A stretch of DNA of 5,019 nt from a virus (lineage: Duplodnaviria > Heunggongvirae > Uroviricota > Caudoviricetes), in the IMG/VR virus record IMGVR_UViG_2534682234_000013; one strand, 5' to 3'. Positions 1 to 4,043 of this stretch are shown here, piece by piece. How positions within the stretch are numbered: the stretch's first letter is position 1; every line of letters starts with the position of its first letter. Below the pieces are notes generated by a model that made no database searches, was not told where the DNA came from, and was given only the letters and a program-made list of their open reading frames with translations. The position numbers and the translations under genes are program-made.

Positions 1-87
1 CTTACCTTTCACGCGAACGCTGCCAGTTAATACTGACCCAGCTGGTTATGGCGGGTCTGGCAGACTATCAGTTTGGTTGTTACAGAC

Positions 88-114
88 GCCTTCAGTCCTG
101 AAGGCTTTTTATTT
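88..114 (+). terminator. Rho-independent terminator-like hairpin with T-tract (possible tR'-like or upstream-gene terminator)
   Basis: Inverted repeat GCCTTCAG (88-95) / CTGAAGGC (98-105) gives a 7-8 bp stem with a very short loop, followed directly by TTTTTATTT (106-114). It lies between the end of an upstream reading frame and the methyltransferase start. Assignment as a lambdoid tR' is inference; the late promoter is not visible in the window. Confidence 0.45.
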
Positions 115-199
115 GTGGTAAATGGGCGGCTGGTGGGTGTAAGGGGCACCCACCAGCCATCTGCTCATGCGTTGGGTTCACAAGCAAACCTCAGGCCCA

Positions 200-218
200 C
201 TGCTTTGCGCAAAAGCAG
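200..218. promoter_or_regulatory. 19-bp near-perfect palindrome CTGCTTTGCGCAAAAGCAG in the methyltransferase 5' leader
   Basis: Arms CTGCTTT (200-206) and AAAGCAG (212-218) are exact reverse complements around a GCGCA core. No T-tract follows, so it is not a typical intrinsic terminator. It sits ~33 bp upstream of the ATG at 251, suggesting an operator or leader RNA hairpin. Confidence 0.25.
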
Positions 219-250
219 AATGAGCCTATCAGAGACAGGCTTAATGATCC

Positions 251-1309
251 ATGCTTAATACTGTAAAAATATCCAGTTGTGAGTTAATCAACGCCGACTG
301 CCTGGAATTTATGCGGTCGTTACCCGAAAATTCTGTTGACCTGATAGTCACGGACCCGCCGTACTTCAAAGTGAAACCCGAGGGCTGGGATAACCAGTGG
401 GCGGGTGATGAAGATTACCTGAAGTGGCTGGACCAGTGTCTTGCGCAGTTCTGGCGGGTGCTGAAACCTGCCGGAAGTCTTTACCTGTTCTGTGGCCATC
501 GTCTGGCATCTGACACCGAAATCATGATGCGTGAGCGGTTTAACGTGCTGAACCATATCATCTGGGCAAAGCCGTCCGGACGCTGGAACGGGTGCAACAA
601 GGAAAGCCTGCGGGCGTATTTCCCCGCCACAGAGCGCATTCTGTTCGCAGAGCATTATCAGGGGCCGTATCGTCCGAAAGATGCCGGGTATGAGGCGAAG
701 GGTAGGACACTGAAACAGCATGTGATGGCCCCGCTGATTGCTTACTTTCGTGATGCGCGCGCTGTCCTGGGGATAACGGCAAAACAGATTGCAGATGCCA
801 CAGGAAAGAAAAACATGGTGTCGCACTGGTTCAGTGCCGGTCAGTGGCAGCTGCCGAACGAAAGCGATTATCTGAAATTACAGGCACTGTTTGCCCGGGT
901 GGCAGAAGAGAAGCATCAGCGGGGTGAACTGGAAAAGCCCCACCACCAGCTGGTGGATACGTATGCCTCTCTGAACCGACAGTATGCGGAGCTGCAGAGT
1001 GAATATAAGCATCTGCGGCGGTATTTCGGTGTGACGGTGCAGGTGCCGTACACCGATGTGTGGACGTATAAACCGGTGCAGTACTATCCAGGGAAACATC
1101 CGTGCGAAAAACCGGCAGAAATGTTGCAGCAGATAATCAGCGCAAGCAGTCGTCCGGGAGACCTGGTTGCAGATTTCTTCATGGGGTCGGGGTCGACAGT
1201 GAAAGCAGCGATGGCGCTGGGACGTCGTGCAACTGGCGTTGAACTGGAGACTGAACGTTTTGAGCAGACGGTGCGGGAAGTACAGGATTTAATCATTCGT
1301 AACGGATGA
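251..1309 (+). CDS. Phage orphan DNA methyltransferase, beta-class N6-adenine/N4-cytosine family (PF01555-like); target site unknown
   Basis: 352-aa ORF. N-terminal motif IV 'DLIVTDPPYF' (aa ~31-40) preceded by a conserved 'ADCLEFMRSLPENSVDL' region; C-terminal AdoMet-binding motif I 'FFMGSGST' preceded by 'HPCEKP'. The order IV -> target-recognition region -> I defines the beta group of amino-MTases. No adjacent restriction endonuclease ORF. Start at 251 chosen because the conserved N-terminal region begins immediately after it; the Shine-Dalgarno is weak. Confidence 0.9.
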   Translation: MLNTVKISSCELINADCLEFMRSLPENSVDLIVTDPPYFKVKPEGWDNQWAGDEDYLKWLDQCLAQFWRVLKPAGSLYLFCGHRLASDTEIMMRERFNVLNHIIWAKPSGRWNGCNKESLRAYFPATERILFAEHYQGPYRPKDAGYEAKGRTLKQHVMAPLIAYFRDARAVLGITAKQIADATGKKNMVSHWFSAGQWQLPNESDYLKLQALFARVAEEKHQRGELEKPHHQLVDTYASLNRQYAELQSEYKHLRRYFGVTVQVPYTDVWTYKPVQYYPGKHPCEKPAEMLQQIISASSRPGDLVADFFMGSGSTVKAAMALGRRATGVELETERFEQTVREVQDLIIRNG

Positions 1310-1349: not shown

Positions 1350-1425
1350 GGCCCTTTAGCTCAGCGGTGAGAGCGAGCGACTCATAATCGCCAGGTCGCT
1401 GGTTCAAATCCAGCAAGGGCCACCA
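1350..1425 (+). tRNA. ileZ: tRNA-Ile (anticodon CAU, lysidine-type; reads AUA), phage-borne ileX-like copy
   Basis: Manual cloverleaf: acceptor GGCCCTT (1350-1356) pairs with AAGGGCC (1415-1421); D-arm GCTC/GAGC; anticodon stem AGCGA/TCGCC with loop CTCATAA (anticodon CAT at 1383-1385); T-arm GCTGG-TTCAAAT-CCAGC; discriminator A plus encoded CCA (1423-1425). Very similar to my recollection of E. coli ileX. The name ileZ follows the usage I recall for Stx-phage tRNA clusters and is not verified. Confidence 0.85.
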
Positions 1426-1505: not shown

Positions 1506-1582
1506 GCGTTGTTAGCTCAGCCGGACAGAGCAATTGCCTTCTAAGCAATCGGTCACTGGTTCGAATCCAGTACAACGCACCA
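1506..1582 (+). tRNA. argO: tRNA-Arg (anticodon UCU; reads AGA, possibly AGG)
   Basis: Manual cloverleaf: acceptor GCGTTGT (1506-1512) / ACAACGC (1572-1578); D-arm GCTC-AGCCGGACA-GAGC; anticodon stem ATTGC/GCAAT with loop CTTCTAA (anticodon TCT at 1540-1542); variable loop CGGTC; T-arm ACTGG-TTCGAAT-CCAGT; discriminator A plus CCA (1580-1582). The name argO follows recalled Stx-phage nomenclature and is not verified. Confidence 0.85.
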
Positions 1583-1869
1583 CACCACACTTATCTGCCC
1601 TGACTCTCTTTTGCGGGCTTTTTATTACAGGAAAGACACCGGACAGTGAAATGTTAAATGCCTCACAATTCAGGCAGTTGACTGTTGCCTGACATGCTGA
1701 GCGTTTGTTAAAAAAATCCTGCATGATGAATCCCCCTGAGCGGCGGGGCATAATGACAGATGTTTGGTTGCGTATTGTATAGGCAAGTTGCGGATTCTGT
1801 CTGGTCATTGCAGAATTCACCGGGAGGCACCCGGCATCATGCTGTATACAGAGATTAGGCATATATCTA

Positions 1870-1894
1870 GGCTTCTCATCGCAGGAGCCTTTTT
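1870..1894 (+). terminator. Intrinsic terminator-like hairpin with T5 tract (+ strand)
   Basis: GGCTTC (1870-1875) pairs with GGAGCC (1884-1889) as a 6-bp stem including one G-U pair, with loop TCATCGCA, followed by TTTTT (1890-1894). Confidence 0.4.
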
Positions 1895-1900
1895 ACATGC

Positions 1901-1926
1901 AAAAAAAAGCCCGAGTGGGTTCGGGC
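1901..1926 (-). terminator. Intrinsic terminator oriented for the minus strand (hairpin GCCCGA/TCGGGC followed on the minus strand by U8)
   Basis: On the + strand: AAAAAAAA (1901-1908) then GCCCGA (1909-1914), loop GTGGGT, TCGGGC (1921-1926). Read on the minus strand this is a GC-rich 6-bp hairpin followed by TTTTTTTT, a canonical rho-independent terminator. Nothing T-rich follows it on the + strand. Confidence 0.45.
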
Positions 1927-1986
1927 AACAGCATGAGATACTTGCATTGTCATTTTTATCGTGTGGATTTTAACCAGGGTTTATAA

Positions 1987-2105: not shown

Positions 2106-4043
2106 ATGACATTTAAACATTATGATGTTGTCAGGGCGGCGTCGCCGTCAGATCTTGCGGAAAAGCTGACACACAAACTGAAAGAGGGCTGGCAGCCGTT
2201 TGGTAGTCCTGTGGCCATAACCCCTTATACCCTGATGCAGGCGATTGCCGCGGAGGGGGATGTGACCACGCCAGTGGTTGTGCCCGGCACGGGGGATGGT
2301 GGCTATCCGGGAGTGGTCACCACGGAGCCAGATTATTACTACGTTATTCCACTGGCCGGGCAGTCGAACGGCATGGCTTACGGTGAGGGGCTTCCTCTGC
2401 CGCAGACATATGACCGTCCTGACCCGCGTATAAAGCAACTGGCTCGTCGCAGCACAGTGACGCCGGATGGCGCTCCCTGTAAATATAACGACATTATTCC
2501 GGCAGACCACTGTCTGCATGATGTACAGGACATGAGCCGTCTTAACCATCCGAAAGCTGACCTGTCGAAAGGTCAGTACGGAACCGTGGGGCAGGGGCTG
2601 CATATTGCCAAAAAGCTGCTGCCGTTTATACCGGCGAATGCGGGTATTCTTCTGGTTCCGTGCTGCCGTGGTGGTTCAGCTTTCACCACCGGGGCAGATG
2701 GAACATACAGTGACGTGACCGGTGCCTCAGAGAGTTCTACCCGCTGGGGTGTGGGCAGGCCGCTGTATAAGGATCTCATCGGTCGTACAAAAGCCGCGCT
2801 GGCAAAGAACCCGAAAAATGTGCTGCTTGCCGTGGTGTGGATGCAGGGGGAATTTGACTTTGACGGAACGCCAGCAAATCACACAGCCCGTTTTACAGAA
2901 GTAGTGGAACAATATCGTACGGACCTTGCAGATATGGTGGGACAGTGCGCTGGTGGTTCTGCTGACGGTGTTCCCTGGATATGTGGAGACACAACTTATT
3001 TCTGGAAGCAGAAGAGCGAATCCACTTACCAGACGGTGTACGGCAGTTACAAAAACAAAACGGAAAAGAATATTCACTTTGTGCCGTTCATGACCGATGA
3101 GAACGGAGCAAATGTCCCGACGAACAAACCGGAAGAAGACCCGGATATTCCGGCATCAGGATATTACGGTGCGGCCTCCCGGACGTCGGCAAACTGGACG
3201 TCAGCAGACCGTGCGAGCCATTTCAGCTCATGGGCACGCAGGGGGATTATTTCTGACCGTCTTGCCTCAGCGATTCTTCTCCATGCAGGACGGACGGCTG
3301 AACTGGTGGGTGGGGAACAGGTTGTGATGCCGCCGGATGAGAAGCCGTCACCGGACACACCATCAACACCGTCAACGGACGGGAAATCAGTGACAACGCT
3401 GCTTTATTACCGTGCAACAGAGTCAGGTGGTTTACTGAATCCGCAGGGATGGGGAGCTGAAGGAGGGCGTGCATTGGTAGTTGATGATGCAGGTGCTGCA
3501 GGAGGTAAGGCGCTGAGGTGGACCAAACAGACAGGAAGTTCCTCGTGGTTTATGCAGCATGATGCCGGTAATGGCGCAGACCTGCTGGAGAAGGGCGGGC
3601 TTATCAGTTGTCGTTTTAAAGTTGATGGCACACTGACAGCTAATCAGTACGCACTGGCGCTGTACTGGCCGGTTTCTTCACTGCCTCAGGGCGTCACACT
3701 GGAAGGTAATGCCGGTCATAACCTGCTGGCGTCGTTTTACGTACAGAGCGATGCCACAGACCTTAATGTGATGTACCACAAGGGAAATGCTGGTCAGAAC
3801 ACGAAGCTGGGGTCATTCGGCGCATTTGATAACGAATGGCATACGCTGGGCTTCCGTTTTGCCGGTAACAACAGTATTGAGGTGACGCCGGTCATTGATG
3901 GTAAGGACGGGACGCCGTTCATGCTGTCACAGTCACCGGTCGGCACGTTTACGGCAGACAAATTGCGCGTGACCGATATCACTAGCGGTGCGACATATCC
4001 GGTGCTGATTGAAAGTATAACAGTGGAAGTGAATAACCCGTAA
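2106..4043 (+). CDS. nanS-p: Prophage-encoded sialate (9-O-acetyl-Neu5Ac) O-acetylesterase, NanS-p type: N-terminal DUF1737-like region, SGNH/SASA esterase domain, C-terminal domain of unknown function
   Basis: 645-aa CDS. Start ATG 2106 preceded by strong SD GGGGAGG (2095-2101); the six-frame ORF extends upstream to a TTG at 2049 with no RBS. 'PLAGQSNGMAYGEG' contains the GQSN block of SGNH-type sialate O-acetylesterases with the presumptive nucleophile Ser. The N-terminus 'MTFKHYDVVRAASPSDLAEKL...' matches my recollection of the NanS-p paralogs encoded downstream of stx in Stx phages and in stx-negative lambdoid prophages of EHEC. A Pro/Ser/Thr linker 'PPDEKPSPDTPSTPSTDGKS' separates a ~220-aa C-terminal domain. 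Function is inferred from motif and synteny. Confidence 0.8.
   Translation: MTFKHYDVVRAASPSDLAEKLTHKLKEGWQPFGSPVAITPYTLMQAIAAEGDVTTPVVVPGTGDGGYPGVVTTEPDYYYVIPLAGQSNGMAYGEGLPLPQTYDRPDPRIKQLARRSTVTPDGAPCKYNDIIPADHCLHDVQDMSRLNHPKADLSKGQYGTVGQGLHIAKKLLPFIPANAGILLVPCCRGGSAFTTGADGTYSDVTGASESSTRWGVGRPLYKDLIGRTKAALAKNPKNVLLAVVWMQGEFDFDGTPANHTARFTEVVEQYRTDLADMVGQCAGGSADGVPWICGDTTYFWKQKSESTYQTVYGSYKNKTEKNIHFVPFMTDENGANVPTNKPEEDPDIPASGYYGAASRTSANWTSADRASHFSSWARRGIISDRLASAILLHAGRTAELVGGEQVVMPPDEKPSPDTPSTPSTDGKSVTTLLYYRATESGGLLNPQGWGAEGGRALVVDDAGAAGGKALRWTKQTGSSSWFMQHDAGNGADLLEKGGLISCRFKVDGTLTANQYALALYWPVSSLPQGVTLEGNAGHNLLASFYVQSDATDLNVMYHKGNAGQNTKLGSFGAFDNEWHTLGFRFAGNNSIEVTPVIDGKDGTPFMLSQSPVGTFTADKLRVTDITSGATYPVLIESITVEVNNP

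Follow-up and report, generated by a model that had tools for sequence, protein, structure and literature searches.

The virus-derived DNA considered here, a stretch of 5,019 nucleotides (nt; hereafter the window) from IMG/VR record IMGVR_UViG_2534682234_000013, encodes a DNA methyltransferase whose start codon is preceded by about 140 nt that can be read as a folded mRNA leader. Judged by its sequence, the gene is an orthologue of M.EcoGII, a new copy of an already known enzyme family, and the leader is an RNA element that is real, conserved and, it appears, not described before. The explanation that best joins the observations, and which we hold to be probable though by no means secure, is that this M.EcoGII orthologue belongs to a late module dependent on a Q-type antiterminator and that the repeat at 200–218 is one helix (P4) of a leader that limits translation. 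A first-pass annotation of the same letters had offered this repeat as a possible C-box-like operator for the methyltransferase gene; the comparative evidence does not support an operator and makes the repeat helix P4 of a conserved mRNA leader. The elements of the leader are as follows.

110–259, plus strand: structured leader of the methyltransferase mRNA, comprising helices P1–P5 and a pseudoknot and reaching the first codons (covariance model R1).
123–127 with 195–199, plus strand: P1, a long-range helix (UGGGC/GCCCA) that closes a three-way junction around P2 and P3 (comparative evidence).
128–139 with 147–158, plus strand: P2, a 12-base-pair (bp) hairpin, GGCTGGTGGGTG/CACCCACCAGCC, from a repeat with perfect 12-bp arms.
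160–168 with 180–188, plus strand: P3, a hairpin (comparative evidence).
200–206 with 212–218, plus strand: P4, the palindrome of the first-pass annotation, CTGCTTT GCGCA AAAGCAG, an inverted repeat with a 5-nt spacer.
220–244, plus strand: P5, a hairpin before the start region, about 221–227 with 237–243 (AGCCT 223–227, AGGCT 237–241).
175–179 with 246–250, plus strand: proposed pseudoknot between the P3 loop and GATCC directly 5′ of the ATG (comparative evidence).

Conservation of the region was assessed in 80 loci, sampled at one genome per species; in 76 of them the methyltransferase is preceded by 350 nt or more of sequence. For 40 of the 76, which span Escherichia, Klebsiella, Enterobacter, Citrobacter, Kosakonia, Buttiauxella, Erwinia, Mixta, Providencia, Proteus and Morganella, the last ~140 nt ahead of the ATG can be aligned with hardly a gap, and by this alignment positions 110–250 (~140 nt) are a single conserved element, one that the first-pass annotation had overlooked. 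For pairs of loci with less than 70% amino-acid identity, identity is 0.69 in the leader, 0.61 over the nucleotides of the gene and 0.39 at third codon positions; conservation of the leader above both the gene and its third codon positions argues that it is under selection. The covariance model R1 scores 130.7 bits in the window (E ~1e-32) and has 47 strong matches in genomes and phages, a number that rises to 96 (67 distinct) when IMG/VR contigs are added. A scan of IMG/VR virus contigs for the P1–P2 pattern gave 81 matches, and in 76 of them this methyltransferase follows; the remaining five comprise one contig that ends just after the match, three matches of odd length that were taken as chance and one deletion variant. 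In full-length IMG/VR copies the methyltransferase starts 130–136 nt downstream of the start of P1, and it is this fixed spacing, together with conservation up to the start codon, that ties the leader to one gene. No family credibly matches the leader in a search of Rfam 15 made with 7 kb and then with positions 60–280 at E values up to 10 (the best match within 60–280, P26, lies on the opposite strand with 24 bits against a gathering score of 36, and all others have E ≥ 0.1). Similarly, no described leader or partner was found in the literature on M.EcoGII, and the paper on the enzyme itself describes neither a leader nor an upstream small gene (PMC5778455).

The structure was set by hand on the alignment, converted into the covariance model and carried through realignment of 47 and then 96 leaders (67 distinct), with two kinds of control: pairing partners slid by 1–3 columns, and 500 shuffles. 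Over the whole structure, 89% of alignment cells hold standard pairs, compared with 31–44% in the slid controls, and both-sided changes are seen at 16 pairs, compared with 3–7; none of the 500 shuffles reaches the observed values. The structure is assigned to the sense strand, as more than 180 cells hold G·U pairs that would turn into A·C mismatches on the opposite one. Folded as a single sequence, RNA 80–260 has a z-score of −4.67 relative to shuffles.

The helices contribute to this signal to different degrees. P1 is paired in 100% of cells and shows one clean double change, from G-C to A-U, in Mixta mediterraneensis. P2 is paired in 97–98% of cells and has compensatory changes at seven of its 12 pairs, for instance from CUGGUGGGUG/CACCCACCAG in E. 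coli to CUGUAAAAGUG/CACCUUUACAG in one Proteus and CAGUGAGGAUG/CAUCCCCGCUG in another; its 12-bp-arm repeat (128–158), which the first-pass annotation had missed, is matched in none of 2000 mononucleotide shuffles of 250 nt. Compensatory changes occur at four to five of the nine P3 pairs, one position alternating between C-G, U-A and A-U and another between U-A and C-G, and the P3 loop, GGTTCAC (175–181) in the window, reads GGAUCAC or AGGUCAC in relatives. P5 is paired in 85–87% of cells, with double changes at two pairs; in Morganellaceae it has another sequence (GAGCUU/AGGUUC) and its register is shifted by one base. The proposed pseudoknot pairs in 93.7% of cells over the 67 distinct leaders, with a terminal pair that is A-U in 23, G·U in 16 and G-C in 15, and the minimum-free-energy fold of the window also pairs 170–180 with 243–255, the AUG included. 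Both arms of P2 carry a Chi octamer (GCTGGTGG) in the window, and the Chi of the 5′ arm is kept in 53 of the 67 distinct leaders; Chi was rejected as the cause of P2 conservation, since the Proteus and Providencia variants retain the hairpin and lose Chi.

A mini open reading frame (ORF) at 122–142 on the plus strand, ATG GGC GGC TGG TGG GTG TAA, overlaps P1 and P2 and encodes MGGWWV* with tandem Trp codons; in most Enterobacteriaceae it reads MGGWWVL*. A conserved leader peptide was considered and discarded, as the corresponding ORFs of Proteus and Providencia encode unrelated 18-residue peptides that lack the Trp pair.

P4 is the part of this structure that had attracted attention at the outset, described as a 19-bp palindrome. 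The inverted repeat is real, and it consists of 7-bp arms (CTGCTTT and AAAGCAG) around a 5-nt spacer rather than of a perfect palindrome. A single repeat with 7-bp arms in 250 nt has P ~0.08 (2000 mononucleotide shuffles) and is weak when taken by itself, while three or more repeats at arm length 7 are reached in only 0.5% of shuffles. The P4 core, GCUUU/AAAGC, is nearly invariant, and because it hardly varies it is uninformative for covariation. The pair outside the core, U201-A217, is U-A in 35 leaders, U·G in five, C-G in 16 and unpaired in 11, and the U-A, U·G and C-G states are all represented in the E. coli clade, a route that RNA pairs usually take; the outermost C200-G218 pair of the window lies outside the covariance model. 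One arm of P4 has a one-base bulge in E. coli, Buttiauxella B2 and Proteus, and such bulges are tolerated by an RNA stem, not by a symmetric protein site.

According to the operator hypothesis, a dimeric regulator, for example the adjacent winged-helix protein, would bind 200–218 as DNA and switch transcription in the manner of a C-box. A small winged-helix gene does lie directly upstream, and its fold is common among DNA-binding regulators; the arms GCTTT/AAAGC hardly vary, the centre remains a palindrome despite sequence changes (GCGC, AGCGCT, TGTGCACA and, in Morganella psychrotolerans, GTCGAC), as that of a symmetric protein site would, and 17 of 43 relatives carry a perfect 16-bp palindrome, GCTTTAGCGCTAAAGC. 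Against this, there is no promoter-like site nearby: sigma-70-like promoter scans found none in the leader, and 115–250 is also devoid of an internal terminator. The site is a lone one, positioned 3′ of the small gene, and no further copy was found in the 29-kb annotated prophage stretch that served as context (L001, in which the window occupies 12001–17019). C-protein-controlled Type II systems resemble the locus in placing a small helix-turn-helix-type gene and a palindrome beside a methyltransferase gene, but their boxes are tandem and lie upstream of the small gene, and they include an endonuclease to be controlled, an Xre-type C protein and a promoter, all of which are missing here; the small upstream protein, with weak Pfam matches to TrmB, MarR and winged-helix families and none to an Xre-type helix-turn-helix, is not a C protein. 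The presence of P4 is uncorrelated with that of the winged-helix gene, since among the 76 species-representative loci 27 have both, 13 have P4 only, 32 have the gene only and four have neither. In addition, the one-base bulges break the spacing of the half-sites, the U·G intermediates at the outer pair are sensible only as RNA, and the repeat is embedded in, and behaves as part of, a larger element whose other helices covary as sense-strand RNA. An operator at 200–218 is, on this balance, unlikely.

The fold described above covers the start region of the gene, which suggests that the leader exerts translational control of the methyltransferase. The methyltransferase AUG has no canonical Shine-Dalgarno sequence; the bases that precede it are CUGAUCUAUG in most relatives and AUGAUCCAUG in the window. 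The 16S rRNA of E. coli ends in ...GGAUCACCUCCUUA at its 3′ end, and the GAUC(C/U) before the AUG is complementary to the 16S segment GGAUCA, spaced as would be expected for this portion of the anti-Shine-Dalgarno region, so that it may serve as the ribosome-binding site. The P3 loop, (A/G)G(A/G)UCAC, is nearly identical to the same 16S segment and can for this reason pair with those five bases too. Since the pseudoknot and the 3′ arm of P5 (the preceding six bases) cover positions −1 to −11, all of these would be paired once the leader is folded. The leader would thereby hold the ribosome-binding region closed, and could limit or time the translation of an enzyme that harms the cell. The GATC (Dam) site at 246–249 on the plus strand, positions −5 to −2 from the ATG, is kept in nearly all relatives, a conservation that the pseudoknot and the 16S complementarity may explain. 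Leaders that hide the ribosome-binding site are known as translational riboswitches and RNA thermometers, and the present one resembles them in that a segment like the 16S 3′ end (GGAUCAC) can pair before the AUG and in the conservation of alternative pairings; it differs in having no Rfam family and in using GAUC instead of GGAGG as the Shine-Dalgarno-like element.

One of these alternative pairings, AUGGGC/GCUCAU, is formed in 98.3% of cells compared with 27–50% in slid controls, shows one-sided changes only and cannot form together with P1 and P3. This pairing hints at a two-state switch, although its conservation could be a by-product of the similarity between GCCCA and GCUCA. Built on this, a more elaborate version of translational control can be put forward, for now tentatively: the leader would be a two-state switch in which a 16S-mimicking loop masks a GAUC-type ribosome-binding site, to be opened by a small molecule or by the winged-helix protein acting like Com of phage Mu, and this protein might instead, or in addition, modulate the methyltransferase as a subunit. 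The winged-helix protein is one candidate for the trigger, and it cannot be an obligatory one; the leader is present in 13 species-representative loci that lack its gene.

Were the opening signal a metabolite, the leader would be a riboswitch, sensing for example S-adenosylmethionine (SAM) or S-adenosylhomocysteine (SAH) and setting methyltransferase translation by cofactor supply through exchange of the P1 and P3 fold for one with an extended P2. The several helices interspersed with highly conserved unpaired stretches (GUGAAAAUGGGCG and AACCAAGGCCCAC) would suit a ligand-binding RNA, as would the conservation of both exclusive pairings of UGGGC (P1 in 100% of cells, the alternative in 98.3%), the sequestration of the ribosome-binding region by the pseudoknot and the exclusive tie of the leader to one SAM-using enzyme. 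However, no Rfam riboswitch, the SAM and SAH classes included, matches at E up to 10, the sequence does not allow a ligand to be inferred, it is not obvious why a late phage gene should need to sense SAM, and the one-sided changes of the alternative helix may reflect nothing other than the GCCCA/GCUCA similarity. A ligand-sensing riboswitch is accordingly quite improbable among the forms that control by this leader might take. An equally slight chance attaches to a leader that acts on the transcript (in processing or stability, as a put-like read-through RNA or as a stable small RNA of its own), an idea to which its place just after a terminator-like hairpin and ahead of tRNAs that need excision from the late transcript, the known density of small RNAs in this prophage region (StxS, AgvB, AsxR) and its very stable fold lend some appeal, but which has against it the fixed spacing and conservation up to the start codon that tie the leader to the methyltransferase, its retention in SfV, cdtI, mEp460 and Flotzy, where tRNA genes do not follow, and the antitermination already supplied by Q.

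The methyltransferase to which the leader is attached has been recognized from its domain and its motifs.

251–1309, plus strand: M.EcoGII-family beta-class N6-adenine DNA methyltransferase, 352 amino acids (aa), ATG start, PF01555.
353–364, plus strand: catalytic motif IV, DPPY, residues 35–38 (read from the sequence and its translation; same in M.EcoGII).
1178–1192, plus strand: S-adenosylmethionine-binding (AdoMet) motif I, F-M-G-S-G, residues 310–314 (read from the sequence and its translation; same in M.EcoGII).

The protein matches Pfam PF01555 (N6_N4_Mtase) with 149.1 bits, against a cut-off of 26.7, over residues 29–340. The target-recognition region is flanked by motif IV on its N-terminal side and motif I on its C-terminal side, the order of the beta class, and the aspartate in motif IV is typical of N6-adenine enzymes. 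The best solved relatives are likewise beta-class enzymes, among them M.RsrI, CcrM and M.MboIIA. The first-pass description of an orphan beta-class methyltransferase with intact motifs holds: DPPY and FMGSG are both complete, and when substitutions in the catalytic motifs were looked for in the alignment, both proved identical in M.EcoGII. Its orphan status is borne out as well, since the surrounding 29 kb contain no annotated or detectable restriction endonuclease, and PADLOC returned matches to methyltransferase models only.

Aligned with M.EcoGII, the window protein is identical at 325 of 350 positions (93%) with two gaps; the reference sequence was machine-read from the supplement of PMC11551740, and because this copy has reading errors the true identity is probably slightly above 93%. 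Both M.EcoGII and M.EcoGI come from E. coli O104:H4 prophages, and the window enzyme resembles M.EcoGII in its full-length identity of 93%, in the order of DPPY, target-recognition domain and FxGxG, in having no extra domains and in being borne by a prophage; it differs from M.EcoGII in length (352 versus 349 aa), by about 25 substitutions, some of which are machine-reading errors, and in its host element, an stx-negative O157:H7 prophage. It is 94.3% identical to the enzyme of phage 1720a-02, which the M.EcoGII paper named as very similar (Murray et al. 2018, PMC5778455). According to the same study M.EcoGII methylates adenine whatever the context, accepts RNA and DNA:RNA hybrids as substrates too, burdens constitutive clones so that they grow poorly and, like M.EcoGI, is unexpressed in the lysogen (PMC5778455). 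Protection of phage DNA from host restriction, a role that the first-pass annotation had suggested, is plausible for the window enzyme. Decay variants of the module also occur: PhiR5_1 (L087) and IMG/VR contig L157 carry the small ORF and the 5′ part of the leader without the methyltransferase, and in IMG/VR contig L108 an internal deletion fuses the P5 loop to about codon 283 of the methyltransferase.

Upstream of the leader lie the end of a small gene and a terminator-like hairpin.

3–101, plus strand: end of the 65-aa winged-helix gene (32 codons plus stop), protein WP_000917750.1; the full gene is L001 11904–12101.
88–105 (hairpin) and 106–114 (U-tract), plus strand: P0, a hairpin and U-tract like those of an intrinsic terminator, TTTTTATTT (terminator scan and inverted-repeat search).

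The small gene begins 96 nt before the window, which opens inside it, and was missed by the first-pass annotation. Its product matches phrog_331 (E=1.9e-37), a family with no assigned function, and NCBI labels it "TrmB family transcriptional regulator" on weak domain evidence. The AlphaFold model (predicted local distance difference test score, pLDDT, 89) has three helices and a beta-hairpin, a winged helix, for which Foldseek finds IclR- and MarR-type winged helix-turn-helix domains, the N-terminal winged helix of O-methyltransferases and the RNA-hairpin-binding winged-helix domains of SelB; because the nearest folds include both kinds, the fold does not tell DNA binding from RNA binding. Two cysteines are the only invariant ones of the protein. 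In 59 of the 76 species-representative loci this gene immediately precedes the methyltransferase, a linkage that argues for a shared function of the two proteins. In loci that lack the winged-helix ORF (L012, L018, L014 and L019), other small ORFs precede the same leader; one encodes an acidic protein of 75–81 aa and another a 79-aa protein with CxxC and CxxxC.

The terminator-like hairpin at 88–114 that the first-pass annotation had reported was picked up by the terminator scan as well. The P0 stem is G+C-rich and 7–8 bp long, the U-tract follows directly, and the hairpin overlaps the stop codon of the small ORF. P0 is kept in most Enterobacteriaceae relatives and absent in Proteus and Providencia, and a strong U-tract (≥6 U in 9) is found in only five of 47 leaders.

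The window shares 99.8% identity with a chromosomal prophage of E. coli O157:H7 strain F3113; it corresponds to the late region of a Stx-phage-type lambdoid prophage. In L001, early and replication genes are followed by a Q-type antiterminator (DUF1133 / Phage_antitermQ), the 65-aa ORF and the methyltransferase; then come a tRNA-Ile (CAT), a tRNA-Arg (TCT), a pair of small-RNA genes and a sialate-esterase-like gene, and finally DUF1378, DUF826, holin S and the lysis and head genes. This late region is common to about 290 phage records, mostly Stx2 phages, and the window copy carries no stx genes. Synteny is kept in phages 1720a-02, phiP27, SfV, cdtI, mEp460 and Flotzy with differing Q types, the shared order being Q, a short stretch with a terminator-like hairpin, a small ORF (in most), the methyltransferase, optional tRNAs and stx, and holin and lysis genes; Flotzy has a different small ORF in the slot of the 65-aa gene, and in SfV the hairpin after Q carries a terminator annotation. 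Because the Q proteins differ between phages that share the order, the small ORF, leader and methyltransferase appear to be a portable module, which by its position would sit at the "moron" site downstream of pR′ as described by Tree et al.

In the interval that separates the Q stop codon from the small ORF (L001 11663–11790), a strong hairpin is followed by a T-run, GCCACCGGAAGGTGGTTTTTTTG, at about 11759–11782. It probably represents tR′, terminating a short pR′ transcript comparable to StxS; a consensus promoter scan of the same Q-to-small-ORF region found no promoter. In the proposed scheme the module of winged-helix ORF, leader, methyltransferase and tRNAs is placed after Q and the first terminator and ahead of the lysis genes, and it would be transcribed only when Q lets RNA polymerase through two terminators, the one upstream of the window and the one at 88–114. 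The silence of such enzymes in lysogens would follow from this need for Q read-through. During lytic growth the enzyme would methylate progeny DNA broadly, blunting host restriction.

Several observations weigh against this joint explanation. The comparative counts on which the structure is founded come from a model-fitted alignment of related sequences, and RNAalifold, given an unmodified MAFFT alignment, found no more than P1, portions of P2 and pieces of other helices; the poor consensus is attributed to one-base insertions and deletions that put P2, P4 and P5 out of register in their 3′ arms. An all-against-all screen of column pairs was swamped by the two-clade phylogeny and was not used. 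In the window itself, P3 contains three non-standard pairs and the pseudoknot has a U·U mismatch at one of its five pairs. The P4 core and most of the pseudoknot are invariant, so that covariation would neither support nor refute them, and every variant of the P4 centre (GCGC, TGCA, TCGA) is a palindrome, a property that a plain hairpin loop does not explain. Xenorhabdus and Photorhabdus loci (L038–L069) keep the small gene and have a leader of about 95 nt with a P2-like hairpin flanked by GGUGAA/UUCACC and a P5-like hairpin, GGCUUUCCAGAGAGCC, which R1 detects weakly (19–23 bits); these leaders have neither P3 nor P4, and the two helices are thus not essential for the gene. As for transcription, a consensus promoter scan did not locate the late promoter pR′, and it is from gene order alone that the methyltransferase is taken to be a Q-dependent late gene. 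Finally, the non-specificity of the window enzyme would be an extrapolation from a relative that is 93% identical.

Two known systems offer analogies for the 65-aa protein, neither of them a family match. In the com-mom operon of phage Mu, the small Com protein binds mom mRNA and activates translation of a toxic DNA-modification gene (PMC6483171). The likeness lies in a late, toxic, anti-restriction DNA-modification enzyme, in the gene for a protein of about 62–65 aa immediately upstream in the same operon, and, by the comparative model, in folded mRNA around the start of the modification gene. The systems also differ: Com is a zinc finger, whereas the protein here is a winged helix with two conserved cysteines; the Mu element is a single stem-loop, whereas the leader here comprises about 140 nt and five helices and persists in the loci that lack the small gene. 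The product of Mom is carbamoylmethyl-adenine, and its chemistry differs from the N6-methyladenine (m6A) formation expected here. The second analogy is M.EcoPA8orf6770P, an Stx-phage methyltransferase that is retargeted to 16S rRNA by PNB-2, a small partner encoded just upstream (PMC10810198). Here too a prophage methyltransferase is preceded by a small protein with a nucleic-acid-binding fold, and the pair sets a precedent for a partner that changes the choice of substrate. The enzyme itself was set aside as a match for the window enzyme; it belongs to an unrelated family (MT-A70, with DPPW), is encoded close to the left end of its phage's genome and not in the late operon, and serves as an analogy only.

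M.EcoGII is a commercial product in wide use as a tool, for example for mapping chromatin accessibility, for MadID and for engineered RNA methylation, and how phages naturally control such a dangerous enzyme has so far only been guessed at. The locus described here offers a possible answer in three layers: Q-dependent terminators, a leader that apparently hides the start site, and a widely linked winged-helix partner. With its ~140 nt the leader makes a compact candidate for an RNA family that is well conserved in Enterobacterales and that Rfam lacks; if the proposal is right, it also exemplifies a ribosome-binding site that uses the GAUC portion of the anti-Shine-Dalgarno region. A further prediction is that uninduced lysogens show no prophage-dependent methylation motif, and such an absence would not mean that the gene is dead.

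The remainder of the window contains further genes and sequence features of the late region.

1350–1425, plus strand: tRNA gene, anticodon CAT, called Met by ARAGORN and Ile (ileZ-like) by RefSeq.
1506–1582, plus strand: tRNA-Arg gene, anticodon TCT (argO-like).
2106–4043, plus strand: 645-aa protein with DUF1737, a SASA sialate O-acetylesterase domain and DUF6645, in the slot just after the stx position.
129–136 (plus), 150–157 (minus), 943–950 (minus), 949–956 (plus) and 2949–2956 (plus): Chi octamers.

Related Stx2 phages have three tRNAs (ileZ, argN and argO), of which argN is missing in the window. Two convergent small-RNA genes, at 1692–1900 (plus strand) and 1902–1961 (minus strand), occupy the slot that holds stxAB in Stx phages; one is a full-length match to STnc100 (173 bits, gathering score 47) and the other a match to an anti-small-RNA of the AgvB/AsxR type (56.6 bits, gathering score 56). 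Convergent small-RNA pairs at the moron site were described by Tree et al., and the pair in the window fits that description. Chi octamers are clustered in the region, with eight in 29 kb against 1.5 expected from shuffles and five within 1.2 kb around the leader and methyltransferase. Inside the methyltransferase ORF a back-to-back Chi pair, CCACCAGCTGGTGG, encodes HHQLV and is kept in 16 of 47 homologues.

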